64,000 nucleotides of DNA from Lingula anatina (taxonomy: Eukaryota; Animalia; Brachiopoda). The stretch is from contig CM120644.1 in NCBI GenBank assembly GCA_051362555.1, positions 2,240,954 through 2,304,953 of the forward strand, written 5' to 3'. A program made the position numbers and the translations under genes. Numbering within the stretch: position 1 is the first letter of the stretch; every line of letters starts with the position of its first letter. Under the pieces are notes generated by a model. That model worked only from the letters and a program-made list of their open reading frames with translations. It had not been told where the DNA came from and searched no databases. This document shows, piece by piece, positions 195 through 44,079 of the stretch.

Positions 195-3100
195 AAAAAA
201 AACAGGGACTAACTTTGAATGTAAAAATTGATTCATCAACCATTGGTAAGTATGGGAAAATTGTTGTTTACTCCAGGAAAATTCATTTTTTGGTCGAAAC
301 GAAGAGTTATTATCCCTTTAATATCTATAATCACAATACTTTGATTTTACCAAACCTTTTTAGAAACATCATGCAACAGCTACATTTGATAAAAAATGGA
401 AGATCTTTTGAAAACATTCTGATGAAAATGTAATTTTCAAGTCGAATCACTAAATCTTCATATTCTAAAAAATCTACTAGTCGTTACAAATAATCACTTT
501 CCGTGGGCGTACGACCAGTGGGTAACGTCGCAGACTGGTTTTAAAAGTAAACTGTTACTCGGTGCAAAATTGTTTTTTAAGTTTAATATATGAGCTGTTA
601 CAGATGTAAAGGACATTGAGGAGCTGGACAAGAAAGTGAAGCTGGAATTCCGATTGCCGGAGGGAGATTTCAGCAAAGATGAAAATGTATTCAATGAAAA
701 CAAAGACAATTTGAGAGCACAGGTACTTTTATATTTTATTATTCTATGAACACATTTGTTTCTTAATATAATAGCTGAAATGAAAAAAAAAGTCCCACAA
801 AGTTGCATGGGAAGATTTATGGAAAATACCTGTATATTGTAAGTAGCAAATACAAGCACTTAAATTGTGTTGACTTACAAATAACAAAAAACGTACACTG
901 AATCAACCAGTGGCTACGTCTGTAGTGTACTACAACTCTACGTGTTTCAGCTGTTTCACCAATTCAATTCGTCCGGCATAGAAGGCCTCAAAGATGTAGA
1001 AATCATCGGTTTTAGGTAAGATGGGGATACGTGATTCTACTTGAAAGTCAAAAAGGCAATCTGCTGCTGTGGATGGTTTAAAAAGTGATCAACAAAAGCG
1101 ATGTATGATCAGTTTAAAGTGTTTTTTGTTTCTATTTTATTACGAAACAAACGCTATTTGACACTGGTGACAGGTAACATTCAAATAACATACATTTTCA
1201 TATAACATACATTTTCAGATTCATTACAGAGTAAATATTGAAATTTGGTGTATATTTTTGTGTTGCCATTCATTCTAAAAACGAAATTTTGTTCACAAGT
1301 TTGTAGTTTCTTGTGTTCTGTCATCTGTTGTCAGTCATTAAGAGTCAGTTTAATTTGTTTCAGAAATGGAAGTATCATCATAGACTACAACTTAATATTT
1401 GCTGTTAAGAGTTTCTTGAAACAAAACGGAACGTCCAACAGCACCCTAGATAAAATCAAAGATGTCCTTATCAATGGCAATACAACATTGGAACTAAAAG
1501 TGAATGGGTCTGTCAGAACGTTTACCCCAGACAGAAATTATAGCGTCGCTGAACTTGAAAAGATAGGTAAGAAATACGAATGTACTATTTACGGGATTTC
1601 CCCTCCGAAATAAAGCTAAATCCAAATGATTTTCTCTTGTACTCACTAACCGTCCTTATAAAAAATACGAACAATATATTTACAACATTGGTCAAAAAGA
1701 TTGTCCCACCCCCAATCCCACGTGCTTTTATTTACAAATGATAGCCTCGCAGGTGTAAATTGTCAAATACATTTTTTTCAGATGCCATATGTAACCTGGA
1801 TAATGGTTTAAAAAAATACAAAATAGAGAATATCCACATTTTGACCCATTTATTCAAAATTGTAACATGTCCCCCTCCAATCCAATGTTTCACTGTGATT
1901 TTCAGCGAGTTAAAGAAATTCCCATGAAATTGAAAAGAGACCGCTAAATATGACCTAATTTACACACAAATAGCATTAAGATGTGGTCGTTAAAGGTCAG
2001 GTATCATATAATGTGTGTATCTACCGCCTACTGTATAAGCTTTCAACAAGGGTAACGATTCTGCTTTGAGAAATATTCACTTCTCTTCCTTACGAGCTTG
2101 GCGGAGTTGGTCCAGATTATTAGGGAATTGGTTCTCCTCTGTATTGCACATTACAATTCACGCACAGGTGCTCAGTAGGCTTAATGCCATGGTGTATATA
2201 TTGTTGCCCCATCCTCAGAACATTGAGTTTCTGCAACAAAACAATCTCCACCGTATATTGTGATTTTTTAATAAAAAAACGAGAAGAGTAAACTACATAG
2301 TTCATAGAGTATCATAGATAAAACTGACACTATGGAAATACTAATTGTCAAATTATTATATTAACAGAGGCTAAGATACAAGATCCATGTATTCTTTACG
2401 ATGACGTGGACATATGTGCCTTTAGAACACAATCACGGGACTACACATGTATTCAAGAGAACCAAGGAGTGCGCTGTAAGCCCAAATGTGAGGGATGGAG
2501 CTGCAGTGGACATGGGTCGTGTATAGTGAGTTATCCCAGCTATGAACCCGAATGCGAGTAAGAACAATTTTCATCTTCGCTCATTAACGCTCATCATAAT
2601 AATATCGCTATATGAAATATATCGAATTAATTTTCCTTTATTTGCTGTTTTTCAGTTTTAATTATATTTCTACTCCGTTAATATACTAATGTACTACATT
2701 AATATGTCTACCCACTTTTCTTCAGTTGTGATACTGACCTCTCTTCTTTCCCTTGGAAATATTATTATGGTGTCAACTGCACAAAAATGCATATGTTAAC
2801 TCGGACCAATCCACCAAAGACGACACCAGCCAGACCAACAGTTAATACCCTGCGTAAGTCACGGGTATATTACTCACATTTCGATCCGCTTTTACCCAGA
2901 TTTATAACAAAATAAAATAAAAATAGAACGAGAAATAAAGTAAAATATAATAATGGCATACTAAAATGGAATCATTAAATTATCATAGTGAAAGTGAACT
3001 ATCATAAATGGTTGCATCCTGTAAATGTTTTCAAGGGAAGGGTAGCTTTAAAACAAGTCCCTTCGAAATCCGGACTTTAGATAATTAACACCCCATTCTC

Positions 3101-4058
3101 ATAGATTAGATCGACCTACATTGGATCGACCTAACTCCCTGGGGGTTCACGCTAAATAGCTGTCAGCCGGGCGGACACGAAAGTTAATTACCCCTTAAAG
3201 CTTGTAGTAGGCGGGGACGGACACTTAAGGGGGATTATCTGACAGTAATCTAGTGAGACTCCCCGCGGTGATAGATCGATCTAAAAGTTGTGAGAACAGA
3301 GCCTAAGCTTCTCAAAATATCGGTAAAATCGTAACGTTTATATAATAGAAAGTTATTATTGTTCATTTTTTTCAGAGGTGAATGTCACTTACGCCGAGAA
3401 TCTGAACAAGACAATTGCGCTAGAACTGCGATTGCTGTCTGGCGAGATTTCTACTTTTGCAAAGCACGCATTAGAAGTGAAACAACAGGTAAAACAGGTT
3501 AAACTAAGAGGCTTAGATAAAAAAGCTATGTATTTGTTTTATTTACTGCTATTTAGCCGCAATAAACATATATCAACTTACAAAAACTACATGCAGGTAA
3601 TCAATGAAATGATTGCAGAATAATACATATTGTAAAGTACAAAAGTTCAGTTCTTAATAACATATGTGCATCATCGCTATTTTAAACAACTGTTACGTAA
3701 AATATATTAATGCTCGAACCCTCCACCCCACCTCGCCGCTACATTGCATGGTTCAATCTACTATAAAGTACCCTGCAAAGTGCTTCTTGTGATAAACCAG
3801 TGCTGATTTTCTGTGCGCCATACCTTTGCTACTGTTAAGGACTGGGTGGTAGTATAGTAATGTGTGCCTCACGACCTAGACTGTACTACTGTAATGAGTG
3901 TTGTGTGTTTGTAACATTTATGATATGCATTGTTTATTGTAATTCTGTCTCATAATTTGGACTGTGCTATCGTAATGAGTATAGTTTGTTTGTAACGTTT
4001 GTGTATTTGTATGTTGTATTGTCTATTGCAATAAAAATAATATCTGTCCAAAAATTAT

Positions 4059-4121
<63 letters not shown>

Positions 4122-7100
4122 TTGTTTTTGGATTATTTAGACATTGACTTATTTTATATTTTATCACGTGTCCATCAATAAACTATCTGCAATTCGCAAT
4201 TTTAGCTGTCAAGCGTATTTAACGAGACTGGTCGGCTAAGAGGAGTTTCAATTAAAGGTTTCAGGTATATATATACATATATGATACGTTATTTCTTGTG
4301 TACTAATTTGTTAAAGAAACAACAGCGTCCCGTTTACATATCACACCTTTTTTAACTTCCGACTTCTTAATTTCATTGTATTCTTATGCAAATGAATAAT
4401 TATGTAAATATATTAACCAAATTAGCCATTAACCTGCGTAAACCTTAAACACCCCTACATGTATTGCTTGGCACTACAGTACATGCCTCAAATGCGCGAA
4501 AAGATCAACGATCAATTTTACCTTCATGTACTTACACGTCATGCTTTGGCTACCCTTGTCTCACTAGACTAACTCTCTAAGGTCTTGGTTGTGAATACAT
4601 CTATTGTTCCTTTATATTTATATTATTTGTCTTTTGCCACAGGAAAGGAATCGTGATAGTGGGTTTTGATTTGGTATACGCATTGAAGAGTTTCCTACAG
4701 ATAAATAAGAGCGCAAATGTTCCGGTTCCCAAAATTGTGGATGATTTGGAAACGATTCTTGACTCTGACATCAACATTGTTGTTGGGAGTAAAAATTACA
4801 CGGTAGATCGCAATTACAGCAAGGATCAAATTAAACATCTAGGTTTGTACTTACACACGCTATGCATGCTTTCTAAAATATTATAAACCAATCTTAGAAA
4901 CATGTATTTGGATTTGTGCACTGCAAAAGCATATAATGAGTGTAGTGATAAGGCTTATGTTATTCATAGTGGGTTACCAGAGTATCTTTGTAGTTTATGC
5001 AGAAAACTCAAAATAACACACACGATGTACATGGCAGATTTTGCTTGTCCTTTTCAGGAGATCAAATAAAAGGTATGTGCAAGTTACCGGGAAGCAGTTT
5101 TGACATTTGTGAAGCAACATCAGAGTGGCAAGATGAATGTGTTTTTCACAGTTCCACGAAGGCTATTAGTTGTGTGAACAAATGTCAGTCCGCTGGAATA
5201 GATTGCAGTGGTAAAGGAAAGTGCAGAGTCACACTCCCGAATTCTAACCCTAAATGCCAGTAAGTCTAAAAACAGAGCTGATGTCGTATTCATCATTTAT
5301 GTAAACTAATCATTTTCAGCGTTTTTTTTTTTTTTTTTTTTTGTTCTGCGTTTTGTTGTTGTGATTGCCATCTGTAATATTAACGAATTCAAAATCAGCG
5401 ATATTATTCATATACCGCCAAATTGAATGCATTCCAAAATGGCAATTTAAATTACCCCACATTGATAGTGATCATAGAGTATAAAAATATTTTTAAATTG
5501 ACTTCCAATTAAATGTTTATCCACAGAAGTCTGTAAAGAATTCTGTCACAAACTGAAATTAGGTATTTCATTCACGTGTGAATTATTACTTTTCATCTAA
5601 AGAACTCAATACACTCAAAATGCTGCTATTATTATTATTATTATTATTATTTCATAACAACCAAGGTGCTTTTCTGAGGAGGAATTCTTCACTGTGATAA
5701 CATATGTGGGAGAACACTGTTCAGAATCCAGCCAAACTCTAACTCAGGCTGGTATCATTATTATCACGGCCGGAGTGGGCGGTTTCTTCCTGCTGGTAGT
5801 CATAGCCCTGACCGTGGGGGTGGTCATCCTTAAGCGAAAGAACAAAGCTACGATAAGCAAGTAAGTCAGTTGGAACCGCATTTAAAAGTGTGAATGGGTA
5901 TTTGATATCAGGCCCGTAGTCTATTACAAACGGTGGGTCTTTTACTGAAAACATGGACCTTTTACGCTGGTGCACCTAGAGCAAAATTTATTCAGAGAGT
6001 ACGCTTTCCCCATCTTCTCTGGCTGCGGGCCTGTGACATTATATATGGATTAGTCCTAAAATGTCTACACCAACATGTAAATATCGTTATCGTCCCCTGT
6101 GCTCCCATAGATTTCTTTAATTGAAGTCACATTGACGGGCTATTAATAAGTATAATGTATAATCTTTGTTTAGTGCAACCCATTATTAACCATTTTTTTC
6201 ATAAAGAAAACGTTTGAGTAACACGATTACAGTTTATAAATTACTCTAACATTCATGTATCGAAATGTGTAGGCAAATAATAAATCTGATGATTGCGGAT
6301 GCAATCTTGTCATAATTAACCTATTTCCTCGTTAAAATCACTGTAAGATAACAATGTCATTGTCAGATACAAGTACCTAGAAGGTCAAGACAGAAACATG
6401 GATATTGAAGACCGATCAACAACATCGTCTGAGGACTCAGGCCAAGAGTCACGTGACATGAAACGCTATGTACACCACCATAACGTGCGTGTGTTTTTTT
6501 TTGTTTTATTAAAAGATTACGGGCTCCATTGCAATAGATGAACGTATGTGAACGTATTGTTTTATTTTAATAGATTGAATGTACTGTGCAGTAGATGGCC
6601 ATTGGCTGTAGGAATATGCATCGCCTTTTACACGTTGCAGTCAAAGTGTTTAGCTATTTTGAACATAATTCAAGTGCCACGTTTCATTATTGACATTGCT
6701 TTATATGAGAACAAAACATATCATTAATTCGATATTGCACATTATTAAACTTGGGAACACTACCTTGTTCAGCTAGGATATGGTGAAAACAACAACCATC
6801 GAAGAGAACACTCCTTTACTTTCTATCAGTGAATTATTTTAAAATTAACTTTTGCCAAGTATGTGCCTCATTGGGGGTGATCGAGTGGCTCCGACATGAA
6901 GTCTTTTTGGACTGCTCACATATGGGTATTTTATGATCTAACCAGACTAGTATTACTCAGGTGAAACTAGAGTCGTGTTTTACAACAGTGATACTAATAT
7001 TTCAGGGCTACGACCCTGATGGTGAGGACTACGTCGGCATAGACCCACATTACACAGGGTTCCAAGTGAGGCTTGATCATATCGACCCTACCATAGATGT

Positions 7101-7401
7101 AAGTTGATTAAAAATATTTTGTTTTTATTTTATTACAAGCAAAACACTCGTTTGGCGTGGTAATGTAGTGTATAAGCTGTATTTGTTTATAATCAATACC
7201 GCCTGACCTACATTTGGTATATCTTGATTCTTAATGTCACATAATGCGTCTGGTATTCAAATCACCTTTCATAATGCTTCACCACATGGTATCCAAGTAT
7301 AAATGAAGACATTTGGGATACTTATTGTGTTGTTTTGTTTTCAGTATTCAATTAGGAGACCGACGGTGTACACCCGTCCCTACGGTCCTCACCACAATTA
7401 A
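195..7401 (+). CDS. Transmembrane SEA/EGF mucin gene 1 (MUC3/12/17-like), 5' part outside the window; two SEA + Cys-rich/EGF modules, TM helix, cytoplasmic tail
   Basis: Phase-consistent GT-AG exons: 195-245 (tentative), 604-722, 951-1015, 1364-1566, 2368-2557, 2726-2853, 3376-3488, 4206-4264, 4643-4842, 5058-5259, 5666-5860, 6367-6484, 7006-7098, 7345-7401 (TAA). SEA1 motif KDVEIIGFR|NGSIIIDY; EGF-like CEGWSCSGHGSC..C.C..YYGVNC; TM GIIIITAGVGGFFLLVVIALTVGVVIL followed by KRKNK; tail GFQVRLDHIDPTIDYSIRRPTV. Several exon lengths (119, 65, 195 nt) are identical in the two downstream paralogs. AATAAA at 7929-7934. Confidence 0.88.
3089..3303. mobile_element. Palindromic MITE (PIF/Harbinger-like) in a gene 1 intron; relatives at ~10990-11102 and ~60563-60799
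   Basis: Imperfect inverted ends (CCCCATTCTCATAGATTAGATCGACCT ... AGATCGATCTAAAAGTTGTGAGAAC) flanked by TAA on both sides; shares TAGATCGATCT and TTTAGCGAGAATCCCC-like motifs with the other copies. Confidence 0.55.
4061..4118. repeat. (TA)n microsatellite
   Basis: Perfect TA run read directly. Confidence 0.97.
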
Positions 7402-8699
7402 AGCAACCCGAGATATAAGTGAATATAATGTGCTGTCACCTATCGAGCATTTCACGCCACCTATTGATCACTTTACATGATGGTATTGACACTACGGATT
7501 ACGGTAGTCCCTTCGTGCAATACTGCGTATAGTAACATTTGAATGTGGCAGTACACAAACACAATTCAGCGATCCCTTCAATAATATATCTATGACATAG
7601 ATTGTGTTTTATAAAACAGAAACTCTTGAAATCAATATTCAATATAATGATGAGAATGAATAGATATCTGACATTGAAGAAATCACTGTAGATACAAATG
7701 TAAAAATGTGTCGAACAAATATTGTTTACTGTAGAAAAATCACTTTTATAGCACTTTTTGCCCTGGAATGATTTGTTTTCCCTTTGATATCCCAGTATCT
7801 GTATCTGTGTGGTGCATTTAATCTTTCTTTGTACCCTTGTTTGTATGTTTTCATGAGCCGCCTTTAAACAAAATTGTATGTACAAATATTAAAAACCAGA
7901 ATTAATAGCATTGTAAATGGTTATAAGAAATAAAACACATGGCACATGTGGAGGCAGGGAGGCCATCAGGAAATTAATCTTAAGTGAGTCGGCCATATTT
8001 GATCAGTGGATCTGTAATGTTCTGCCTCTAGTCGACAGGAAGCACCCAACATAAGTCATGCATGGGGTTTGTTGACTACTGTGGTGTAGGCTAACTGACA
8101 GTGATCAGGGCAACGGGAACAGTTATACAGACCCTTGCATCCAAGCACTGGAAATGAAACTGATCACCTATTTAAGTTTTAGCATGGTAATGCTACTCCA
8201 CGTACAGACAATGCAACAGCAGGCTGGTTATGTGCGAACCAGATCCTAGACCCACCACTCCCAATGGCCAGCTTAATCCCCTAGATAAAAAGGATGTGTA
8301 GGATATCCTCAGAAATGGATAACTGATGGATAATTCTCCAAACAAATATGATCTCAAATTATCTATGTACAGTATGTGGTACAAACGTTACAGAACTTTT
8401 CGACTCCACACAAAGTACGTCTTCCAATCCAGACGATACTTTACAAAATACTAAAGTATGTTTTTTTTTAATTTTTTTTTTAAATATGATTCGGTAACTC
8501 ATGGTGGTACAATTAGTAAACTTTTGTGAAATAAAATCCCTCTAGAAGTTGAATATAGAATGACTTTCTGTATCATATACGCATTGCGTTAGGGGTGACA
8601 CTTCTTTGGCAGAGGAGTATATAAAACATACAACACGGATTATCTCTGCAAGGTCTGGAACGCCGTGAAATTATGACTGATACATGTATAATAATCGAG

Positions 8700-18032: not shown

Positions 18033-21000
18033 ATGTATCTTGTGAGAAAAGTCGTACAATTTGCAACTGTACTTATGATCTATAACCGTCAAAGTGTGGC
18101 TGCAGGGACCTCGAGTACTTCTCTTACAATACCATCGACGTCCACCGTGAAAAATCCAGGTTCCACTGATGCTTCTATTACAGCAAGTAAAAGTGTTACT
18201 TCCGCCGCTGCTTCAACACCACAAACGGCATCGTCTAGAGGGACTAGTGAAAGTGTTACTTCAACCAGTACTATAATACCGTCAACAACAAAACCTACCG
18301 TGATGACTGAAAGTGTGACTTCCACTGCTTCTTCAACATCATCAACAGTTAAGTCTAGTGGGACAAGTACAACTGTGACCCCAACCACTACTTTAACACC
18401 ATCAACAGCAAATTTCACTGGGACAAGTAAAAGCGTAACCTCCGTTGCAATTTCCTTACCACCAACAGCAAAGTCTAGTGGTACAAGTGAGAGCGTGTCC
18501 CCAACCACTACTTTAATACCATCAACAACAAAACCTAGCTTGACGAGTGACGTGGTGACTTCCTCCTCTTCTGCAACACCACCAACAGTATATTTTAGCG
18601 GGACAAGTGAAAGTGTAACACCAGACACTACCATAATACCGTTAATAACAAAAGTTACAGTGACGAGTGAAACTTTGATTTCCACTACTTTTTCAGGACC
18701 ATCGACAACAAATTCTAGAGGTACAAGTGGAAGTCTGACTCCAGATACTACTGCAATACCGTCAATGACAAAAGCTACCGTGACAACTGAAATGTGGACG
18801 TCCACTGCTTCTGCAACACCATTGGCAGCAAATTCCCCTGCTACTTCTACGCACTCAACATCAAAGTCTAGTAGGACAAGTGAAAGCGTGACTTCCTCTG
18901 CTACTTCTACACCATCAACATCAAAGTCTAGTGTTACAAGTGAAAGCGTGACTTCCTCTGCTACTTCTACACCATCAACATCAAAGTCTAGTGGGACAAG
19001 TGAAAGCGTGACTTCCTCTGCTACTTCTACACATTCAACATCAAAGTCTAGTGGGACAAGTGAAAGCGTGACTTCCTCTGCTACTTCTACACCATCAACA
19101 TCAAAGTCTAGTGGGACAAGTGAAAGCGTGACTTCCTCTGCTACTTCTACACCATCAACAGCAAAGTATAGTGGGACAAGTGAAAGCGTGACTTCCCCTG
19201 CTACCTCTACACCATCGACAGCAAAGTATAGTGGGACAAGTGAAAGTGTGACTTCCTCTGCTACTTCTACACCATCAACAGCAAAGTCTAGTGGGACAAG
19301 TGAAAGCGTGACTTCCTCTGCTACTTCTACACCATCAACAGCAAAGTATAGTGGGACAAGTGAAAGCGTGACTTCCTCTGCTATTTCTACACCATCAACA
19401 GCAAAGTATAGTGGGACAAGTGAAAGCGTGACTTCCTCCGCTACTTCTACACACTCAACAGCAAAATCTAGTAGGACAAGTGAAAGCGTGACTTCCTCTG
19501 CTACTTCTACACCCTCTACATCAAATTATAGTGGGACAATTGAAAGTGTGACTTCCATCAATACTTTTTTACCACCAACAGCAAAGACTGGTGGTACAAG
19601 TGAGAGCGTGTCCCCAACCACTACTTTAATACCATCAACAACAAAACCTATCGTGACGAGTGAACCACCAACAGTATATTTAAGCGGGACAAGTGAAAGT
19701 GTAATACAAGACACTACTTTATCATTGTCAACAACAAAACCTACTTACGCTGCATCTTCAACATCATCAACATCAAATTATAGTGGGACAATTGAAAGTG
19801 TAACTCAAAACACTACAGTAATAATGTCAACATCAAAAGGTACAGTGACGAGTGAAAGTGTGATTTCCACTGCTTCTTCAACGCCATCAACAGCAAATTC
19901 TAAAGGGGCAAGTGAAAGTGTGGATTCCACCGCTACTTCAATATCATCCACAACACAATATAGTGGGACAAGTGATAGTGAGAGTACCCCCGCTACTTCA
20001 GTATCATTAACAACAGCAAGGTCTATTGGGACAAGTGAAAGCATGACTTCTGCCGCTACTTCTACAGCATCAACAGCAAAGTCTAGTGGGACAAGTGAAA
20101 GCGTGACTTCCTCTGCTACTTCTACACCATCAACAGCAAAGTCTAGTGGGACAAGTGAAAGCATGACTTTTCCGGCTACTTCTACAGCATCAACAGCAAG
20201 ATCTAGTGGGACAGTGACGAGTGAGTCTTCCCCTGCTACTTTAACACCATCAACAGCAAAGTCTAGTGGGAGAAGTAAAAGTGTGACTTCCACCATTACT
20301 TTTTTACCACCAACAGCAAAGACTGGTGGTACAAGTGAGAGCGTGTCCCCAACCACTACTTTCATACCATCAACAACAAAACCTATCGTGACGAGTGAAG
20401 TGGTAACTTCCTCTGCTCCATCAACACCATCAACAGTAAAGTCTATTGGGACAAGTAAAAGTATGATCCCAACCACTAATTTAACACCATCAACAGCAAA
20501 TTTTACTGGGACAAGTGAAAGCGTAACTTCCGTTTCAATTTCTTTACTATCAACAGTAAAGTCTAGTGGTACAAGTGAGAGTGTGGCCACTCGTGCCATT
20601 TCAACACCACAATCAGCAACGATTACTGGTAGCACAGGGAAAGTGTCTACTGCAGCTACTCCTCCACCGTCTACAGCTGGACTTGGAATCTCTACGACAT
20701 TTAGTTACACCGAAGAACCATCAACTCAAACCGACACTAGGACACCTACTGCCAAACCGAATATAGTTCCGATCATGCCGACGGAAATTACCCTAAGTAA
20801 GTTTGTTTGAAGTTCTTCATTCACGATTGTTTTGATATGCTATTAGAAAAATATTAGCTTTGCAAAACACAGTGACCTTTAATAAGTGGAAAAGTACCTA
20901 TATATAGTTGTTTGAACTTAGTAGTCATGTGATGTAAGTAACGTCCTTTCAACATTTAGCCTCGGTCACAACCGGCCGTACGGGCTCTTACGGGCTGTTT

Positions 21001-24000
21001 GCTACCAACATTTGGATGTTGGGCATGTTCAAAATATTCTACGAATAGCCTGCGAACAGCAAGGCCGCAAGAGATACGCGCGTTGTGCAAGACGCACGTC
21101 GCAAGCAATGAAGGAGCAAGTGCCCTTTGCGTGTTGAGTAAGGCGCACGCAATCACAACTAACGAACAAAGTCGAGAGCACACTGGGAATGCATCGCACG
21201 TGCATCACCCCACGCCTCAGGCCTACCCAACTACCATAATCGGCACCTACGGATCAAGAATAAACCGGTATATCAGACCACACTACCCGTTTTCAAGGAA
21301 TGTGTCAGATCGCATTACAGAGTATCATACCCTATCACAAATTTTGTAAGCCTACCTGTCATCCGGGTATCGCGCCTCGTTTTCGTCAAGTAGGAGTCGT
21401 ATGAATACAACAACATGGAAATCGGCAATCCTCGGCTCATTCCGCCAGCTCCATACTATTGTCGAGTGCGGACACATCGGAGTAGTTCCGAGTAACAATA
21501 TGGCGACAGACGACTCACTGATTATCGTCCAGAAAATATCTAACCCCCGACAGAATATGCTTCCGCTATCAAAATTAGGTCTACTTTTCTAAATGAATAT
21601 ATAAGTTTGCAAGTACCTATATACAAAACATCATTGGCTATGTTCGAACCTAAATTTTATGTTAAAAATTGCGGTATTGTCAGATTTTTAGCATAAACGG
21701 GGAAAATTGCAGCAGCGCATGAATCTAGATGAGATGCACTACTTTCCAACCCCGCTTTAGACCACGGTGGAAGTGAAGAACAAAAGATTCAGTGGATTTG
21801 GTGTAACTCGCATAACCGCACGTCTCGCATGAATGCGTTATAACCCGCAAATGGACCCGTGGTCTAAATAAGATAGATCCCTCGTCAGCGAGGGTTATGT
21901 AACATCCACTCGTGCTTCGCACTCGTGTATGCCACATAACCCTCGCTGACTCGGGGTCTATCTATTACTACGATCATCGCTATCATATCGCGCATCAGGC
22001 AAAATCGGTGTGGTGGCTGATACTCTGTAATGCGATCTGACACACACCTTGAAAACGGGTAGTGTGGTCTGATATACCGGTTTATTCTGGATCCGTAGGT
22101 GCCGAGTCTGGTAGTTGGTTAGGCCTGCGCCTGGTGTATAAAAGAAGTGCTCACGACGCACGCTCGTGTCTTTACAACGAACGTCGACTGTTTAAAATGT
22201 ACAACAATTTTCAAAATTTTCAAATTTTTGCTTAGTTTCTAATATGCCTTCAAATGGCAAGAGAAAGAAGCTTACATAGTAGAAAAAAGGGAGGAGGAGA
22301 AGAAAGAAGAGGAGAACAGGAAGCAAAACTGACGTACGCCGTCAGTACATCACCACAAACGTGTGAGGCAAGTATGAAGCAAAACTGACGCAAAGGGCAC
22401 TATTTCGCCGTGCATTACATTCCCTTCGTAAGTGATGAGTGTGGACCACGTACACGGGAAGCAAGACAAACTCAAGAAATGCCCCTTGCAATTAGCGTCC
22501 CTGCTTGAAAGGACATCTCATGTGGCCCATGCAACTCGCAAGGCAGACTTTCATCTACCTCTACGACCTCCACGGCCTCCACAACACCAAAAAAATCGCA
22601 GGGGACGTACGATCCTGATATATGATGCGTCCAGTTGTGACCGAGGCTTTTTCCATTGTTTTTTACGTTGTACGTATTTGACAGTTTTGTGCCAAGTTAC
22701 ATTTTGAGTTCATACTTTTTTCCTTTTAGAAAACACTGAAATTGAGGAATTAGACAAGAAAATAACATTAGCGTTGAGAATACCGAAAGCAGACTTTGAC
22801 AGTCTCGAAAAAACATTCGAAAATGATAAAACAGATTTGGAAAATCAGGTATTTTCTTCTTCGAGGCCAAAGTGGGTCTATATAACTGTTCCCAACAATG
22901 ACATATATTGGTTAATATTATATTACTTCGATATGTATTTTTTCAGTAATTTACTGTATATTAATGAGATGTTGACGCATAGATACGCTCTATCCCTGTC
23001 TATCTCTGTTCTATTAAATTATTATGATAAGGAAATTTGTCTATTTCAGTTGCTGGCTACGTTTAATGCGTCAGGAGTCGAGGGATTGAAAGGAGTGGAA
23101 ATAATAAGGTTCAGGTAGGTTACTTTGCCCCTCTTTTTGTTTGCTATCTTAACGTCAAAATGCGATAAAAAAAGAAGAAAAAAAAACGCGTAACTACACA
23201 ACACACACAATTCATTTTATTCACATCTTATACCTTTTAGGTACGGAAGCATTATCATTGACTACAACCTTATATTCGCCCTCAAAACTTTCTTAGGGCA
23301 AAATGGAAAAAGTAGTAAAACGCTGAAGACAATCGAGAACGCTCTGGTGAATCGGAACACAAGTTTAAATATAACGGTCAATGGGACTACCTTTTCCACA
23401 GACAAAAAATATAGTGCCTCTCAATTAGCTACAGGTGGGTACTATGATATTGGTGATCAAAACAATAATAACAAAATAGTATATTTTGCCTAGAAGATTA
23501 ACAAAAAGGAACTCACAATATACCGTAATTAATATGCGAATTTTAGAGTACCGTTAGGAATACTCTTTGTGTGGTTGGTATAAATTTCCTGATAAAGAGT
23601 CTCTTGTATGGGAGATTACAAAATTTTACCTTAGGGAGTAACTGATTAAAGGTATTTCACCAATGACAATATGGCTGACAGATACAGAGACTCTCTAGGT
23701 TATGATTTGTCATTTCTACTAGCACTTGATAAGAATAATATATGTGATGGTTTACATCAACATAAATGTGCCAGTGTCCGTTTTGATTACTCTACACATA
23801 CTTAGATCTATACTCCCACATTCAACCTTAAATGTAGCTAAGGTTTACTGGGACATTTATTTAGATTTACTTTTTATGTGAAAGTAGTTATCTTTCCCAA
23901 CACTGCATACACCCGATTAGTACCTCTGCACTTTGTTTGGTTTACCATATGTTTATCGTAGATGTCACTTACATTTGTACCATTGCACAGTAAAATCAAG

Positions 24001-25902
24001 TCTAACGGACCCGTGTATACTCTATGATGATGTCGACATCTGCGAGCTTAGAACACAATCTCGTGATTACTCGTGTGTCCCAGAAACCAAGGGTATACGC
24101 TGTAAGCCGAAATGTGAGGGTCAAGACTGCAGTGGGCATGGACAGTGTATAGTGCGCTTCCCGAAATACGCCGCGGAGTGCATGTAAGTAATTATTGTTG
24201 TGAGGGACATATGTGTAATCTTGTGGCCAGTAAGAGGAAGTAAAGAGGTAGTAGCATCCACCATAGTTCAAGTGTTCCCACACGTGTATGTTTGTAGTCA
24301 AGAACAATATTCGAAAAAAGAATCCGTTCTGCAAAAAACGAATGCGGTGTTTTAAGTTCAATAAAATTAGAGTAACCAATGATAGTGATATCTGTCTAAC
24401 AAAACTTCACAAAGCTTGGAGTAGTCATAAACATCATCTTTAATTTAAACGTCGCAACTTCCAGATGCAAGGTTGAACACACGTTCATCTCGACGACTAC
24501 CTATACTGGACAGACTTGCTCAGAACCCAACCAAACCCTGACCCAAACTGGTATCATCATAATTACCACCACTGTTGGGGGAGCTCTGCTTCTGGCAGTC
24601 TTTGTACTGGTTGCGGCAGTGCTGCTACTCAGGCGAAGTTACATTGCTACGAAAAACAAGTAAGTATAAAGTTGATATATTTCAATTAAATCTATTTTCA
24701 AAAACTATCACTGGCTTAATGTAAAAATGAATTTCAAAAGATATTAAAAAGACAGTGATACCAATGTGCTAGATTTTTTAAACATTCGATAGTTCAAAAT
24801 AAAAAAAACTTAATTTTCAAACCATTCGTGTACAGATATGGGCAGATTGAAAGTCAAGAAAAGCAGTCAGATTTGGATAATCAGTCAAGCTCTTCTTCCG
24901 ACGTAGAAACTACAGGATTCCGTAACAGAGGGAATCATTTTTATCATGAAAACAAGGTAAGTATTTTTTTATAATAAACCATGTTTTGCATAAATCAAAA
25001 ACGTGAAAAATTGAATAAGCAATCAAGTGTCATACAGCATTTTATACATTTTAATTCATTCCAAAATGATGGATCAGTTTATTATCTTGCCAATATCGGT
25101 TTAGTCAAAGGAAATAATGAAAATTTTTCTTCTGAAGCAATATTTCAAAAGTGAAAAGCGAAATTTTCATTTCCTTTTATGCATCATCTCCTGATACATG
25201 TAACATATAATCAATATTATATAACCGAAAAAAAATTAGATGGAAACTTAATGATACGCATTGGGTATACCGGCTCACTAAATTTAAGTATTATTTACCC
25301 TAGAAATTTATAACTGTCAGTATAACTCTTAAAACGGAAACCTGCACGTATGAAAAAGCCAATCATTTAAGTAATATTTTACCATGTATCTGTCTGCAGG
25401 TTAGGTGTTATAGTGTACTATTTGTATATCTACCGATAGTGACTCCTGCAAATGCTTATATGTACTGCGGGTAGTTCTAGTACTTTATAATTTCAGGGTT
25501 ACGACCCTGACGTCGACGACGGCTTGGACCCCAGGCACGCAGGATTCCAAGTGAGGCTCGATCATATCGACCCTACCACAGACGTAAGTTGATAAATAAA
25601 TCTTCAATAGAAGCAATGTTGTATGTAGTGACTATGTAGAGGCAGTGACTACATTTTGGTAGTTCATGTTGTGCATTTACACCTTGCTTTGATTCTCAAA
25701 GTTACTTAATATGTGAGATATCCAAGTTGTCGTCGAAATATTCGTAGGCGTGTTTGACAAGTCCCATCTAACATGAACAAGTGAAGCGCGGAAGACTAAT
25801 CGGGTGTTTTTATATTATTTTCAGTACTCCATTAGGCGGCCAACCGTGTACAGCCGTCCTTACGGTCCTCACCACAAGGAAAACAAACCAAAATATACGT
25901 GA
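18033..25902 (+). CDS. Transmembrane SEA/EGF mucin gene 2 (MUC3/12/17-like): putative signal peptide, ~900-aa PTS domain, SEA, Cys-rich/EGF, TM, tail
   Basis: Exons 18033-20796 (ATG right after ttttcag; MYLVRKVVQFATVLMIY then Ser/Thr/Pro-rich), 22730-22848, 23050-23114, 23241-23434, 23991-24183, 24465-24659, 24836-24956, 25497-25583, 25825-25902 (TGA). SEA motif KGVEIIRFR|YGSIIIDY; TM GIIIITTTVGGALLLAVFVLVAAVLLL then RR; tail GFQVRLDHIDPTTDYSIRRPTV. All intron phases are compatible. Confidence 0.92.
18841..19555 (+). repeat. Coding VNTR: 60-nt / 20-aa unit (ATSTPSTAKSSGTSESVTSS), 11 near-perfect units plus a degenerate 12th
   Basis: Successive 60-nt lines are almost identical. The rest of the PTS exon is made of degenerate versions of the same unit. 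Confidence 0.97.
20958..22648. mobile_element. PIF/Harbinger-like non-autonomous element in a gene 2 intron, carrying a nested MITE
   Basis: TIR AGCCTCGGTCACAACCGGCCG / CGTCCAGTTGTGACCGAGGCT, with TTT on both flanks. Confidence 0.75.
21218..22127. mobile_element. Second member of the CAGG-terminus family (5-bp TSD CGCCT), nested
   Basis: Same ~100-bp TIR as 15465-16014; CGCCT at 21213-21217 and 22128-22132; different and longer interior with an internal hairpin at ~21866-21966. Confidence 0.9.
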
Positions 25903-28900
25903 ATATCATATGGTTACTACTGACACCTATCGGTCATTTTACACGATATCATTGGGGCTATGGATGACGGTAGTCTGTTTGAGAAATACTTGGAAACTTT
26001 ACTTGAGCATGTCAGTTTAGGGTCAGCACAATTATAATGGACGTTATCTTTAAATTATCTCTAATTTAGCTGATATATATGTGTTTATAAAACACTAATA
26101 TAAGTTGTTGATTCAATATTCATATTTGATTGAAGTATGATATTGATATAGATCTGGAATTGTTAAAAAAAAGCCTGACAGGTTGTTTTGTTTGAAGAAA
26201 TTACTGGAGATCCAAATTTAGAAACGAATGTTTCAAACAAGTTCACTAAAATAAGATTCTGACATTACCCAAAGTATTACAATACGTCAAAATCATGCAA
26301 TACAGCTACTGCAGAAATACGAGTGTTTGCATGAACGAAGTCTAGAAATAGAAGAATTACATTTCAAGAGGGGGCCATTGGCGTGATTATTTTTCAGAAA
26401 TCGAAGAGGGGGGGTGGGCAGGACACCCCCTAAATCCGTCACTAGTCGTAGTCGTAGTAGTAGTTGTAGTAGTAGCATCATTGTAGTAGTAGTAGTAGTA
26501 AAGGAATTGAGAAAGCAGTTTATAAAGAAACTTAAGATATTATAAGAAGGATAACAAATACAAGACCCATGATGGTTGTAGCTGCATGTGTATGTGCATG
26601 ATATGTCTAAATGGATATTGATTAGTAATGTCTGTCCCAAGTACCCTTCAGGCTAGACAATTAGTATTGAACTATATTTATCTTATTTAATATAGCCGTA
26701 GAGTTATAAAATGCTTTTATAATCTATAGCATCAATGTTAGTTGTATGAAGACTTGCTACGTATGAAGCAGGTAAATACAACTGTGTGTAATAAAAGTAC
26801 TATTATTGATATTATAACGGGCTATTTATATTGCATCCAAACACGAGTTTATACATGTTTGTATGCTCAAGTATTCGTAACTGAAATAATGTATATATGA
26901 ATCGGTTTATGCATAATTATCAAATTGAAAAGTATTAGATATTCAATTAATTAAAGATACTTGCTTATAGAGACTGGCGTCTCTGTCCAAATATTATCTA
27001 CACGATACTAGCTCCACCCTTAGCAAAATGAAAAGTTTACAGCAATATTGCAGTGCCATTATACGCGTCAGAAATATACCTATGTACAACACCCTTAATA
27101 CATTGAATGCATGCACGCAATTAGTAAATGCATGTTAAAGAGTGTGTGTGCTTGGTAGAAGTTTTCAGATTCTTTTTGCTTTTTTGCGTTTCTTATTACG
27201 TACTCATCAACAACGCGCTCTGGAAAGTTGTAAAATGAGAAGTGGCTTATCAAGAATTGTCCCTGAAATGATTTTGTTGACGTCATATATTGTTTCAAGC
27301 CTGGTTATTAAACTTTCCTGGTAATCTGCGTCAAACAGGATCCAGCCTGAATACTTTCTTTTACTGGGAATCTTAGGCCATCTTCATTTTTCTGTCGTGT
27401 TTGCATGGAAAAACACTACCAGAAACGTATCCCCTGTTCATATTCAACTCAGCCGGATAGTGATCAATGATCGTATAACATGGTCTTGTTGTGCAGGGTT
27501 ACAACAAATGATGTGTACAACTACATGTACATGTACCGTGCAGAATTCACTGTAATCAAATACCTTTTTTTACAAAAAGATGAAGAATTATGATAATTCA
27601 TAAAATAATAAACGTTGTTTATCTTTAAAGTATTGTTTTTTCTTCAGTGAACAGCTTGAAATAAAATGTTTTTTTTTAACCTCCAATATTTCCTTCATAA
27701 CATAACACAGGTGATGAAATTCTTCTCTGGCGCTTTGTACTAAGTCTTATTTAACAATACAACACATTGGACGGTTTTAATATAGTTAAAACTAGAATGT
27801 AAACAGGATGTTAAGTGCATCAAGCACTTCAAAAACATTAAATTGTTTTGAGATTTTAGCTTTTAGCTTTTCCAGTATGTTTTTAGCGTAAACATGTTGT
27901 GTTTTTAGCATATACATTTAGTTTTGCCACCGACGCTGCACTTTAACCTGTACTTCCATTAATTTGTCATTCGTTTGTTGTTGGTTGTGTGATAAGAACT
28001 TGACATTTGAAATTAAAATTAGTCGTTTACTAGGTTGACAAGGAACGTTAAACCACCACCCTGAACTCTATTTTTATTCTTCTTCAGGATAAATTCATGC
28101 ACACGGTTACGATGCTGGAGGGAGGGTTTACAACATTTAAAAATGTGCCTGTCACAGGTGATTTTTTTCCAGACAACTACAGGATACTGAGCCTTTAAAT
28201 CAGTTAAAATAACCTATTGATATGACCATACTTGATAGCTAACTTGTAGTAAATATACCCTAAATAGCAGCTTGTGTATCAAAATCAAGTGATGGTAAGA
28301 ATGTTGTGTGAGTGTGTGAGTGTTGGGGGGGGGGGGGTTGGGGGGGGGGGGGGGGCGCCTGTTTGTGTGGTTAAGGCAGGCCACGTGCATGTGTGAGCAA
28401 GCAAGGGGGTGTATATACCGGGGTATGTGAGGGAGTGGGTAAGGGGGTATGTCCCTGTGTGCACAGGTGTGTTTGTGTTTGATAGAGTGAATAGGGGGTG
28501 TGTGCACGAATGCGTTTGTAAACTCAATATAAATGAATATCAGATGCAATGAGGGATACATTTAAGCACGGTAATGCAAATAAAACGACATGCCTGAATA
28601 CATGTGACCTGTACAATTACAAAATGGGAGAAATAGGTATTTGAAATGAAAAAAAAATATTTTAAAAGCGGTTTTAGTTGAAATTATTCACAAAAAACAG
28701 CACTTTCTCAGCATCAAACACTCCAAATAAACAATATCTATTTCAAATTTAACGTCTTACACGCGCCCAGTACGTAGAAATGAAATACTAAAAATGGCAT
28801 TTATATCCCGCGATTTTAATATACCTTGCGTGTCACGTTACTCAGATACTAGCATATGAATGAACGGGTGAAAAAAATGTGGGAAAATTGCTCAACCTAT

Positions 28901-31218: not shown

Positions 31219-32674
31219 ATGTGTCCTGGAAATAATATCAACCAGATTGCCCTGTTTTTGCTGATTAGCACAATTCCTGAGGCTTCCAGCAGTACTTCAG
31301 CACCAACGACAACCGTTAGTAAGACAGTTGAATCTGTGACCTCCCCCGCTAATTTGACATCATTTTCAACGAAGTTTACTGGGACAACTCCAACTTATAC
31401 TAATGAATCTACTAGTGCGCCAACCGTTTTACCCCCTGCACCAGCTAGACCACAGGGACCTGGCAAACCTACAGTGCAGATCAAGCCAGTGAAAATTGCT
31501 CTAGGTATAAAGTCGAATATGAAGGATATATATGCTGTCTTGAAGTATCCTTTAATTGCATTATTTATAAAATATCTGCCTCAATATTGAGTTGGATTGA
31601 AAGCTTATATTCCTGTTTATGTGATGTCAAGAAACATTCTAATGCATAATAATGTTTTGCTCATTTAGAAAACACTGAAATTGAGGAATTAGACAAGAAA
31701 ATAAAATTGGCGTTGAGAATTCCGGAAGCAGACTTTGACAATCTCGAAGAAACATTCAAAATTGAAAAGACATATTTGGAAAATCAGGTATAGGGGCTGG
31801 CACATTTTAATATATTTTCTTCTTGGGGTAAAAGCATATATATTGCATTGTTTTCAGCATCCCTCAAAAAACTATGACACTATGTTGCGACGTATATTTA
31901 TTCAGTTATTGCTTTGTATATTATGATACAGTGAGGTATGGTTAAGTATATATCTAGGCGTCTGTCTCTTAAGTCTCCCTCTCTTTCTCTGTTTTACTAC
32001 ATCAGTGCGCATATGGAACTCATCTATTTCAGTTGCTGAAAACTTTTAATGCGGCAAGAGTCGAGGGCTTGAGGAGGGTGGAAATAATAGCGTTTAGGTA
32101 GGTTACTTTGCCCCTCTTTTTGTTTGCCATCAAACAATTTTTTTCACCTAAAAATGTGTTTCGAATCCAATTCAGAATCAATCAATACATTAAGAAAACA
32201 CAAAATAACCTTATAGTCCCTGCATGTTTTCAAATGCAAATGATGTTATAACCATGTGGAATGTTTGCAAAGGAATTAGATAATGGATATCTTTCTTGAG
32301 AAAAGTGATGTATGAAAAAGCAAACCCATAACCAAAGCAACAGACAATTTATTCTGGTCACATCTTATACGTTTTAGGTTTGGGAGCGTTATCATTGATT
32401 ACAACCTAATATTTGCCCTGAAAACATTCTTAGGGCAAAATGGAACTAGTAGTAAAACGTTAAAGACAATCGAAGATGTTCTGTCGAGTCAGAACACAAT
32501 TTTAAACATAACAGTCAATGGAACCACCTTTACCACAGACAGAAATTACTCTGCCTCACAATTAGCTACAGGTGGGTACTATGGTAATGGGAAAAATAAT
32601 AGAATAGTATGGTACTATGCAGAAACAGACGGTAATCAAAGCACCTCACAGGCAGAAGCAATATTTATGTGTAC

Positions 32675-32707
<33 letters not shown>

Positions 32708-35700
32708 CGTAACATGTCACCTACATTTCTTCCACTGCACAGCAAAATCAAGTCTAACGGATCCATGTATACTATATGATGACGTCGACATCTGCGAGTT
32801 TAGAACCCAATCTCGTGATTACTCGTGTGTGCCAGAAACCAATGGTATACGCTGTAAGCCGAAATGTGAGGGTCAAGATTGCAGTGGTCATGGGCAGTGT
32901 ACAGTGCGCTTCCCGAACTACGCTGCAGAGTGTGTGTGAGTAATACATGTAAAAAGGGCAGACGAGTGGTGGTCATAATAATTAGTTAAAATATAGTCAC
33001 ACCTACTGTTATTACTGCCTCTCATTTGTTGTGGAGATAAGACACAATGTTTGATAATACATTCGTTTCACAGCATTGAATTGCAGTATTAAACATTCAG
33101 TTTAGTCTAGTTATAACCAAAGGTAGAGGTATGTATCACTAAGGAATGTTTACGAAAGGTGAAACAGTCACAAAACTGTCATGAATAATTAAAAGGCTTC
33201 ATCCTACAGGTGCAAAGTTGAACACACGTTCATGTCGACGACTACCTATACTGGACAAACTTGCTCAGAACCCAACCAAACCCTGACCCAAACTGGTATC
33301 ATCATAATCACCACCACTGTTGGGGGAGTTCTGCTCCTGGCAGTCTTAGTACTTATTGTGGTAGTGGTGATACTCAGGCGAAAGATCAAAGTGATGAAAA
33401 ACAAGTGAGTATACATTATACAGGAACATTACATATATTATAAAGGAAAAAATATAATTATTTAACTAGAATGATAAGATAAGAGTTTATCTAGCCAATT
33501 ATAAAAATCGGAAATCGTTTTCCTTTTGGAGCAAGAGTAAAAGTAATACAATTGATACATTAAGAATTTGGTTTTGAGATCAAATTAAAATGTGTCACTG
33601 CACTTGGATTAAAGCTGTTAAAGAGTGTTTACTGCCTTTAAAAGTTAAAAGTCTACTATTGCTTGGTAAAAACGTAAAAAGTGATGGTGCAGGATAAGAA
33701 GAGTATTCCATGGTGTTGACAGTTCTTTTATCCATTCTGTTTTTAAAAATATCATACAGCTTGGGTACACACAATATACCATAGAAGTGTCACCCCTACT
33801 GAACCAATTCTTTGGGGGAGATAAATGACTGGAATGATATGCTCCTGGTATCATTTTATTAACATCAAATTTCACAAAAACTGACCAGGTATTATAACTA
33901 CTCAAGATCTGCTTACTTTGATTATTGATTACTTGATTATTATTTGATTACTCTGATTCAGGGGATGACACTTCTATTGTCCATTGTATGTAGGTCCTGT
34001 CGGATAATCTTGCTTGCAGTTTTCACAACGTTGGTTAGTTTATTTCTTTCCTTCCCAGTTGTTTCGCTGTACTATATTGTAATTCCGTACGCAAGGACGC
34101 TTTCAATTACACACCTGTAAAATTAACTAAGATAGGCACGCTATCAGTAAAAGTTCTCAGTGATCTTAAAAATACAGTCTTGGACGTGTCTTCTTTACAC
34201 CCTTCCCGGTGTAATCTTTCCAGTTACTATTCAGAATTACTATTCAGGTGTATACCAAGTAGTTTAAATTCCTCTACATGATGTACCCTACTAACTTCGA
34301 CATTACCAATGGTGAGTGGTGGTTGTACATTCTGATTCCTTCTAAAACCCACTATCATTTATTTGGCTTTAGCTACGTTTAAAATAAGATCATTACTCTC
34401 GCAACACCTTACCACTGACTCAACAGATTTTCTATGTGTACTCTCGTCATTATCAGTAACTAGCCCCACAAGCGTAGTATCAATCTGCAATCTTTAAAAA
34501 TTCCATAACATCCCCAGATATGCGCTGCATGAGGTCACGCTTAGCCCATTGCGCATGCGTGCACTTTTAATGAGTTGCTAGATTGCCATAGGAAAATGAA
34601 TGGGTTCGCGATTCGTGGGTAATTCGTGATAATTGACAAACTAACGACCTGATGCCGATAGACAGCAACGATGTGCTATGCTTCAAGCAACTCCTGACCA
34701 AATATCGTTAGGGTTTTTAAAAAAATTCTGTTGTACACACGTACTAAGAAGTTTGCCGTGTATTGCCTAGCCTACCCTCAGCAAAACGCACATATTTTCA
34801 GAAATAGTGATTTTAGACGGTAGATTCACTCAGAAACAAAGGCAAACTAATTCGTTGCCGATAGCACCAGCAGATAGCAGCACCATACAGAGTCTGATTA
34901 AAACTTTCATGGCAATTAAAAACTTTTACCACTGTACAATGGAGTCCAAAAAAGCACTTGGCACAAATGTGAAACTGCCCAGTGCAAGGCCAAGAATTCA
35001 ATCAGTATTTTCAATTATATTATCAGAGTCTACATAAATTGACTGACAATATCACTACTCAGTATTTAGCTAATCTCTTAATCCAAAATTCCTATCATCA
35101 TTTAATAATAATAATGCAAAATTCTTCTTTCAGATTGCTATTTATTTCAAATTTTAATGCTGCAACTATTCCAAAATAATCTTGTAGTAAAGGAAAAATA
35201 CAAATAAGAAGTGGAAGACTAATTTTACCCACATTATTCAATTATTTGAATATAAAAAGAATAAGATCACGATTTTACAAATTAAAATAATCTTTCATTA
35301 ACTCTTTCATGAATAACATATTAAACAAAATTAAAGTTATAAATTAAAGTGGTAATGGCTTATTCTGGAATAAATGACCTCTGCACATCATCAGTACCTG
35401 ACTTGGTACAGTATAGTTACTACTTGGATACAGAGTTAGATTTAATAATGTAACAATAAGAACAATATATATTACAATAAACTCCTCTGCACATGTCAGA
35501 CGCTTGTTAACATGAACTAACACTACCTGACAATGGGCTGAGCACTTACCGTACTTGGATTAAGAATGTGTACATTTACCCCGTGGACCATTTGAAGATT
35601 ACACTGCGATTAATGCGGTGGAAAATACAATAGAGAGAGTGTATAATGATAGGGTCGCTAAACGATTGTTGAAGGCATATAGTAACTAGCCTAATCCCCT

Positions 35701-43035: not shown

Positions 43036-43074
<39 letters not shown>

Positions 43075-43301: not shown

Positions 43302-44079
43302 ATTTTACTTAACTGCTGCACGGAATTGAACGCAATGTAGCCTCTTCAAGTTGTGCTTTTAATGGTATCTATCATTAAATGAATAGACTGGTGTATCAGG
43401 AATATAAACATCATGTTCAGGAGATCATTCAAATTTATCTGATACATATACTATTATATCGTTATTCAGAAATGACAAACGGTATAGAATAGGTCAGAAC
43501 TGAGAAAATGAACAGTGATTGAAACAAGCTCATCCTACACCACGCAATTGTGATTTACAGTGAGAGTTGGTGACCGTTAACTGAAAATTGGGAATAAGTC
43601 GTTATTATAAACATGACAGGTAAAGTATATTGATAATTGCAATAGAATAATAGTTTGTACAGTGGTGTACTCAGGACTATCCATTGTATGTAATTAAAAT
43701 TTCTACTAACACATATTTCGTGTTTACACCCTAATTTAAATTAAAGAATACAAGTAACACATGGATGCTCACCTAGTTTAATTGCCGGCGATAATATCAT
43801 CAGGACTAGAAATATAATCCGGTGAGTTATTCATATAATTACTTGTAGCAGTCAGATTCTGTTCAAATTACCTTGATACATGTCAAACTGCACGTCTTTA
43901 AAATGAAAATAAAACCATGGGTTGATCTAGCGTTCAAATTATATATAAAAACTGAATTGTTATAAAAGTAGACATGCCATTAGGTTATCCATAAACACAG
44001 GACACCCGTTGTTTACGCCATATTTTATGATAACTCGTTTCTCTCTTTTTTACATTCAATGTATCATTTTCAGATTGCA

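Follow-up and report, generated by a model that had tools for sequence, protein, structure and literature searches.

The best described systems with which the genes treated here can be compared are human MUC17 and its neighbours in the MUC3 cluster on 7q22 (MUC3A, MUC3B, MUC12 and MUC17). They belong to the SEA-type membrane mucins, a term we use as defined in PMC13643018. In the portions of the literature available to us, the vertebrate members are described as sitting on microvilli, with tails that control apical retention, and the route by which MUC3/12/17-type mucins reach the apical membrane is presented as an open question. Here we describe a window of 64,000 nucleotides from the brachiopod Lingula anatina (assembly GCA_051362555.1, contig CM120644.1, positions 2,240,954 to 2,304,953 of the forward strand), which contains three tandem mucin paralogs on the + strand (genes 1 to 3). 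The predicted tails of genes 1 and 2 carry a motif of 21 residues that is common to them, to vertebrate MUC3/12/17-type mucins and to mollusc relatives. We lean towards the reading that this motif originated in the bilaterian ancestor and serves as a docking peptide for a conserved adaptor.

The correspondence with the MUC3 cluster covers several levels of organization. In both systems the genes lie in tandem and encode type I membrane mucins, the domain in which proline, threonine and serine abound (PTS) occupies one large exon (in Lingula that of gene 2), a juxtamembrane SEA domain with a G-S-[VI] site and an EGF-like region precede the membrane, and the tail comprises ~70-90 residues with the motif near the C-terminus. 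The Lingula genes differ in that they lack a class I PDZ ligand, that gene 1 possesses two SEA-EGF units, and that an EGF-like domain ahead of SEA is missing from genes 2 and 3: unlike in MUC3/12/17, their PTS exon leads directly into SEA, and a cysteine-rich region follows only after it. Several of the mollusc carriers are represented by partial models. The Lingula motif is further distinguished by an aromatic residue at position 14, a PxxDY sequence and a downstream extension, Y-x-R-P-Y-x-P-H-H. If the 21-residue motif is taken as diagnostic of the MUC3/12/17 type, as we propose, genes 1 and 2 possess it and gene 3 retains it in degenerate form.

The motif, predicted to lie inside the cell, is interrupted by the last intron after position 13. 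In gene 1 the penultimate exon (7006-7098, 93 nt) encodes positions 1-13 (7060-7098) and the terminal exon (7345-7401, stop included) positions 14-21 (7345-7368), with a canonical GT-AG intron of phase 0 lying between the two exons; the layout of gene 2 is the same, with exons at 25497-25583 (motif 25545-25583) and 25825-25902 (motif 25825-25848). In both genes the junction is a splice predicted from GT-AG sites and open frames. Between genes 1 and 2 the motif is identical at 20 of 21 residues, in contrast to 14 of 49 in the membrane-proximal tail, where the proportion of non-synonymous differences (pN) is 0.43; the SEA and EGF regions are identical at 110 of 190 residues (pN 0.26, with a proportion of synonymous differences, pS, of 0.83). 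Within the motif pN is 1/48 (0.02) and pS is 8/14.8 (0.54), and because of this difference the motif must be regarded as conserved at the protein level, beyond mere conservation of the DNA. Purifying selection acts on the motif and, in the tail, is confined to it. An earlier note, made from the DNA letters of the window, had pointed to a nearly invariant stretch below a poorly conserved upstream tail in two genes, and its coordinates (7006-7401 and 25497-25902) proved exact; a third paralog (last exons 42765-42851 and 43224-43304) had been overlooked. The motif of gene 3 agrees with that of gene 1 at 12 of 21 residues; F1 and L5 are gone from it, as are the H-I-D core and the invariant Arg, while PxxDY and the downstream extension are kept. 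This Lingula-specific extension of nine residues (7369-7395, 25849-25875 and 43248-43274) is identical at 7-8 of 9 positions among all three paralogs, gene 3 included, and may together with PxxDY constitute a second, lineage-specific site.

The motif is not restricted to Lingula. A phmmer search among 1.84 billion representatives (E<=0.001), with the motif-less RefSeq protein of gene 1 (LOC106157143) as query, yielded 27 non-self matches, of which 23 have a scoreable tail and four have no tail or one of fewer than 25 residues; names were looked up for 20 of the 27. Nine of the 27 carry the motif in their tails: five molluscs (Patella vulgata, Haliotis rubra, Mercenaria mercenaria, Sinanodonta woodiana and Solemya velum), three frogs (Ascaphus, Hyla and Engystomops) and the coelacanth. 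A search with a family profile that included the tails added ten vertebrate mucin-3A/3B/17-like proteins (eight from frogs, one from a bird and one from a bat), nine with the motif and one whose model ends early, as well as four ADGRF1 proteins, all without it. Like the mucins, IMPG2, MUC13, HEG1 and ADGRF1 combine SEA with an EGF-like ectodomain and appear among the neighbours in the ESM Atlas or in HMMER searches; one IMPG2 tail, the four ADGRF1 tails and the matches from other gastropods yielded no full motif. The abalone protein is labelled mucin-3B-like in the database, so automated annotation already sees the likeness of the ectodomains.

The consensus of the carriers reads F-x3-L-x2-[IV]-[DN]-[TP]-x3-h-x-I-x-R-P-x-[VI], where h is a hydrophobic residue. 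Since the training segments were cut with a pattern anchored on positions 8-10 and 18-19, the invariance of these positions is partly a product of construction. F1 and L5 lie outside the anchor pattern and are invariant in all 13 vertebrate motifs and in both Lingula genes, and are found in none of the five molluscs, whose version differs at positions 1-5 (S3, Y5). When a protostome profile, trained on two Lingula and five mollusc motifs, is applied to 14 named vertebrate MUC3/17-like tails kept out of the training, it locates the motif in 13 of them, all in one register, and each score is reached by 0-6 of 2000 shuffles, compared to at least 124 of 2000 for motif-less tails. Conversely, a profile built from the 13 vertebrate motifs assigns 22.9 bits to gene 1 and 24.6 bits to gene 2, which 0 of 5000 shuffles reach, and to gene 3 a score that is reached by 1127 of 5000; the best control 21-mer scores -1.7 in the window (38,340 six-frame positions) and 1.1 in the fetched proteins (27,595 positions, two duplicates of training rows set aside). 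The deep conservation supposed in the earlier note is supported by carriers in five molluscs, frogs, coelacanth, bird and bat, and the protostome and vertebrate profiles recover each other's motifs far above shuffles.

Apart from these carriers, the tails of Macrostomum (P0018) and Branchiostoma (P0007) hold no more than a short stretch, hydrophobic-x-x-P-R-A, that is reminiscent of the motif's second half and hints at a shorter and more widespread form; it is not significant with the profile. The nematode proteins MUP-4 and MUA-3 were considered as carriers of a related motif and dropped, as the accessible parts of PMC2150763 and PMC2150771 gave nothing to this effect. None of the Pfam models searched describes the motif, a PDB sequence search with the motif exons (E<=10) gave no match, the family profile matched PDB entries only in SEA, EGF and transmembrane parts, which leaves the motif uncovered, and an ESM Atlas feature search with a frog tail gave no usable match.

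The link to human MUC17 can be examined directly, because PMC6705488, in the part available to us, prints the last 23 residues of the protein as an antigen; a figure there aligns human and mouse C-termini and is used for a phosphoserine. An ungapped alignment of this peptide with gene 1, made by eye, gives 10 identities out of 23 (L, H, I, D, P, I, R, P, V and a Thr), in the register that the earlier note had proposed; both its version of the MUC17 ending and the L-x-HIDP spacing agree with the printed peptide, and the comparison covers MUC17. A binomial estimate over 55 x 60 tail-to-tail offsets places the probability of such a match at 0.001-0.015, which makes it meaningful as a comparison of tail with tail and would not do so against a whole proteome. 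The choice of MUC17 is independently justified, since two of the three ESM Atlas clusters nearest to the motif-less LOC106157143 protein already bear the names Mucin-3B and mucin-12 (0.94; 183-188 of 256 features).

We consider common descent of the motif to be quite probable, and shared ancestry is its simplest explanation because a long, gap-free motif occupies the same place in the same architecture. The relationship of the genes themselves is another matter. In an ectodomain tree of 36 rows and 281 columns, with 12 sequences left out as duplicates, poor or redundant, the vertebrate clade (98/98) and the Lingula clade (99/96) are well supported. When carriers are forced together (25 versus 11 rows), the approximately unbiased test does not reject the grouping (p-AU 0.123), a weak result, as three close non-carriers were added after the tree had been seen. 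Strict orthology of the Lingula genes to MUC3/12/17 does not follow from these data, because the base of the tree is open and the ectodomain profile does not discriminate. A literature search and the MUC3B supplements gave no intron position for vertebrate MUC3/17 genes. A Lys occupies position 13 in 9 of 13 vertebrates, which would fit the end of an exon, although this is only suggestive.

As to function, a role of the motif in docking for apical targeting or retention seems to us somewhat more probable than not, and it is the simplest one, because vertebrate members reside on microvilli and their tails control apical retention. We propose that a motif inherited from the bilaterian ancestor would act as a docking peptide that folds only upon binding one conserved cytoplasmic adaptor, and that this adaptor would deliver the mucin to, or hold it at, the apical, microvillar membrane. 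The h14-x-I16-x-R18-P19 half might add a beta-strand to a lobe of the FERM/PTB type, with F1/L5/[IV]8-D9 as a second anchor, and the PDZ ligand would be a later, optional addition. Strand addition on a FERM/PTB-type adaptor is a guess and, taken by itself, rather unlikely, even though it is the single likeliest mode of binding. AlphaFold2 models agree with a disordered tail: in a frog carrier (19 aligned rows) the predicted local distance difference test (pLDDT) climbs from 42-46 ahead of the motif to 60-65 across it, and the motif forms no fold of its own; in a mollusc carrier (9 rows) the motif reaches 54-58. A rise in pLDDT that is not accompanied by a fold is typical of conditionally folding motifs, and a partly ordered peptide of fixed length with alternating hydrophobic residues and an invariant Arg-Pro resembles a ligand that folds on binding. 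The idea of a hairpin, based on the likeness of a D-[PT]-x-T-K turn to model hairpins, is unsupported, for both models show coil over the motif.

Several observations weigh against this reading. Within Lingula, the motif of gene 3 has been lost though its frame stays open, and the RefSeq model of gene 1 ends in an exon at 6773-6832 and does not include the motif. Among the relatives, the vertebrate profile detects the mollusc motifs weakly (6, 6, 16, 126 and 181 of 5000 shuffles reach their scores); the matches from amphioxus, sea urchin, coral (Xenia) and flatworm (Macrostomum) are without the full motif, a single match from a lineage being too little to show absence; and none of the named matches is a carrier from teleosts, arthropods or nematodes. 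The deep branches of the ectodomain tree are unsupported, the carriers do not form one clade in the free tree, and a vertebrate ectodomain profile scores motif-less proteins such as IMPG2 and one from Sinanodonta at 63 and 77 bits, compared to 58 for genes 2 and 3. With regard to binding, PDB sequence searches found no solved structures that cover the motif, and the passage on the MUC17 interactome available to us names SNX27, MYO1B, FSCN1 and others, and no ERM protein. The pattern of the ERM FERM motif-1 is [YLF]-x-[VIL]-x-x-[AP] near a juxtamembrane basic cluster. This pattern in its strict form fits all seven protostome motifs and none of the 13 vertebrate ones, and the motif lies ~50 or more residues from the membrane, away from the position of such a site.

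The ectodomain results give substance to a different view of the history: a wider SEA-EGF-transmembrane group may have had the motif from its beginning, or the motif may have arisen repeatedly as a ligand of the same partner, so that the Lingula genes would work in the manner of MUC3/17 without being orthologues. The failure of the carriers to group in the free tree, the equal standing of motif-less SEA proteins on the vertebrate profile and the deviating first five positions in molluscs all speak for it. We nevertheless hold it to be unlikely, if worth keeping in mind, because convergence would have to produce 21 positions without a gap at one place of a shared architecture, which is hard to envisage, the grouping of carriers is not rejected by the test above, and the tails of IMPG2 and ADGRF1 are free of the motif. 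The RefSeq ending, which the earlier note had overlooked, opens the further possibility that the motif exons are not the main ending of gene 1: alternative last exons might toggle a docking site, or the RefSeq model may be wrong. The exon at 6773-6832 has a good acceptor and an open frame in the window; on the other hand, no counterpart was found in genes 2 and 3, no poly(A) signal (AATAAA/ATTAAA) occurs between 6832 and 7006, in contrast to 7888 and 7929 where signals are present, and the motif exons possess canonical sites and are under strong purifying selection. Furthermore, the RefSeq model of another Lingula paralog (P0029) keeps motif positions 1-13 and departs at the same junction, which suggests that the annotation misses short last exons. 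RNA reads, from eight of nine listed runs with four per gene, do not cover the motif exons and speak neither for nor against the splice: four runs on 4200-8600 gave partial, repeat-like reads outside exons, nearly all near 7945-8015, and the other four on 22700-26300 gave four reads on the transmembrane exon of gene 2 and none on its motif exons. An ending of gene 1 that dispenses with the motif appears very improbable as the principal one. The region 7945-8015 itself is a short dispersed element 3' of gene 1 that attracts partial reads of other transcripts in its four runs.

The task of the motif may still be another than docking to an adaptor of its own. It might be an upstream extension of the PDZ ligand, read together with the last residues by a PDZ scaffold of the PDZK1, SNX27 or GOPC type, as in MUC17 and most vertebrate carriers it stands 3-6 residues from the C-terminus and the tail partners of MUC17 named in the texts available to us are PDZ proteins. 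A class I ligand, however, ends only 4 of 21 carriers (three among the 13 from vertebrates, one among the five from molluscs and no Lingula window gene out of three), anything between 1 and 19 residues separates the motif from the C-terminus (one doubtful model has 45), and according to the accessible part of a 2026 MUC17 review the tails of MUC3 and MUC12 do not bind PDZK1; we consider the extension improbable. The suggestion in the earlier note that the motif is separate from a terminal PDZ ligand, which the window genes would lack, is in line with these counts. Being absent from 10 of 13 vertebrate database carriers, the PDZ ligand defines the mammalian members better than the whole group. 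In the texts available to us mutation of S4492 in the ligand left the surface presentation of MUC17 unchanged, and this, together with the missing PDZK1 binding of MUC3 and MUC12, leaves room for a second signal. PxxDY was tried as the main element and rejected, as it occurs in 2 of 20 carriers, both Lingula. One may still suppose that in Lingula it is the functional element, an SH3 ligand of the EPS8/Nck type that ties the mucin to microvillus tips, the rest being context: it spans the last junction in all three genes, including the decayed gene 3, and the accessible part of PMC9407544, from which we took the pattern, describes EPS8 as a microvillus protein whose SH3 domain binds PxxDY. Found in none of the 13 vertebrate and five mollusc carriers, PxxDY cannot explain conservation across phyla and is at most a lineage-specific second site; that it is all that matters strikes us as quite implausible. 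Equally hard to credit, or slightly more so, is the idea that the motif offers a strand to Ig repeats of filamin, or docks an enzyme, for instance calcineurin, instead of acting as a trafficking or retention signal. An alternation at positions 8, 10, 12, 14 and 16 like that of filamin ligands is shown by nine of the 13 vertebrate motifs and by two of the five from molluscs, but by neither Lingula motif, where position 10 is Pro as in MUC17; moreover, the terminal Pro of filamin ligands corresponds to Arg in 20 of 20 carriers, and PxIxI fits 1 of 20. Ligands that act by beta-strand addition, such as those of ERM proteins and filamin, share with the motif the alternating hydrophobic residues in a disordered tail, but none of the ERM, filamin and PxxDY patterns fits all carriers, and the motif differs from them in its greater length (21 residues), the absence of gaps, its large distance from the membrane and its invariant Arg-Pro.

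The three mucin genes were delimited by self-comparison and exon building, with canonical GT-AG sites and open frames, in a window of ~36% GC whose genes contain spliceosomal introns. Gene 1, the start of which lies upstream of the window, has the order SEA-EGF-linker-SEA-EGF-transmembrane-tail; its spliced model is 97.4% identical over 533 columns to the RefSeq LOC106157143 protein (P0001, Lingula anatina), which was also the sole match in word-based protein searches with the EGF exon of gene 2 and with the LOC106157143 protein itself. Its first SEA domain (exons 604-722, 951-1015 and 1364-1566; SEA profile 43.4 bits) has a G-S-I-I-I cleavage site directly 3' of a phase-2 intron and is followed by an EGF-like exon (2368-2557) and a region of linker, second SEA and second EGF (2726-5259), in which SEA 2 occupies 3376-3488, 4206-4264 and 4643-4842 (30.5 bits) and the EGF-like exon 5058-5259; the transmembrane exon (5666-5860) and a poorly conserved first tail exon (6367-6484) precede the exons discussed above. 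Gene 2 (1271 aa) begins with a signal peptide and a single large PTS exon of 921 codons (18033-20796; S+T 54%, P+T+S 61%) with tandem repeats of 60 nt, and continues with SEA (22730-22848, 23050-23114 and 23241-23434; 40.2 bits), EGF-like (23991-24183), transmembrane (24465-24659) and first tail (24836-24956) exons. Gene 3 (441 aa) has the same order with a short PTS exon (31219-31504, 95 codons, 50% P+T+S), SEA at 31669-31787, 32033-32097 and 32378-32571, EGF-like at 32743-32935, transmembrane at 33210-33404 and first tail exon at 40253-40361.

These ectodomains agree with the membrane mucin type: genes 2 and 3 are PTS-rich, and the window genes are predicted to have a single transmembrane helix with a cytoplasmic tail. 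The Pfam SEA models do not call the Lingula SEA domains. A profile from 13 Pfam-called SEA stretches of other matches places all six Lingula SEA regions at 30-43 bits, where the best of 1800 shuffles reaches 12.3, and hhalign gives a probability of 98.1%, so that a juxtamembrane SEA domain is present. The putative cleavage motif reads G-S-I-I-I in the first unit of gene 1 and in gene 2, and G-S-V-I-I in gene 3, Ile replacing Val of G-S-[VI]-V-V. G-S-[VI] is absent from SEA 2 of gene 1 (4206-4842), where the window allele lacks the cleavage serine and RefSeq differs at exactly these residues; for this reason this domain is probably uncleaved. Genes 2 and 3 (22730-25902 and 31669-43304) are 83% identical in SEA and EGF (pS 0.32) and 38-52% in the tail before the motif (pS ~0.5), a pattern that reflects either homogenisation of the ectodomain or fast divergence of the tail, with loss of the motif in gene 3.

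Beyond the mucin genes, the window contains three similar + strand open reading frames with EF-hand-like loops (45632-46168, 53918-54475 and 58304-58861), which seem to form a tandem cluster in which a single exon holds the coding part, and which may resemble sarcoplasmic calcium-binding proteins. Judged by their translations, 52664-53908 on the - strand is a reverse-transcriptase-like fragment of a long interspersed nuclear element (414 codons), and 61511-63298 on the + strand, with 595 codons, looks transposon-derived.

In the literature searched, which leaves most subscription journals outside its scope, no description of the motif was found, although the exact peptide is in print in one relevant paper as a reagent, and it may well be that the likeness of the tails among mammals has been noted before. 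The part of the 2026 review available to us names, for tail and trafficking of MUC17, the PDZ ligand and phosphoserines only, and 'little-characterised', as the earlier note put it, is a fitting description. Within this literature, a tail motif of SEA-type membrane mucins that crosses phyla is previously undescribed. A brachiopod cluster of PTS-SEA-EGF-transmembrane genes with the tail motif of MUC17, together with carriers in five molluscs and the coelacanth, would push this lineage far back. It is possible, and we put it forward tentatively, that mucins of the MUC3/12/17 type date to the ancestor of protostomes and deuterostomes, and that their most conserved intracellular feature is the 21-residue motif rather than the PDZ ligand, binding one conserved adaptor through which the glycocalyx of the brush border would be built across Bilateria. 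If true, this would fill a gap in the account of how the human mucins MUC17, MUC3 and MUC12 arrive at microvilli and remain there. For a barrier with a link to Crohn's disease, the motif specifies which residues to mutate and which peptide to use in pull-downs, and it may serve as a sequence marker by which to recognise MUC3-like genes that escape Pfam and are often truncated in gene models.

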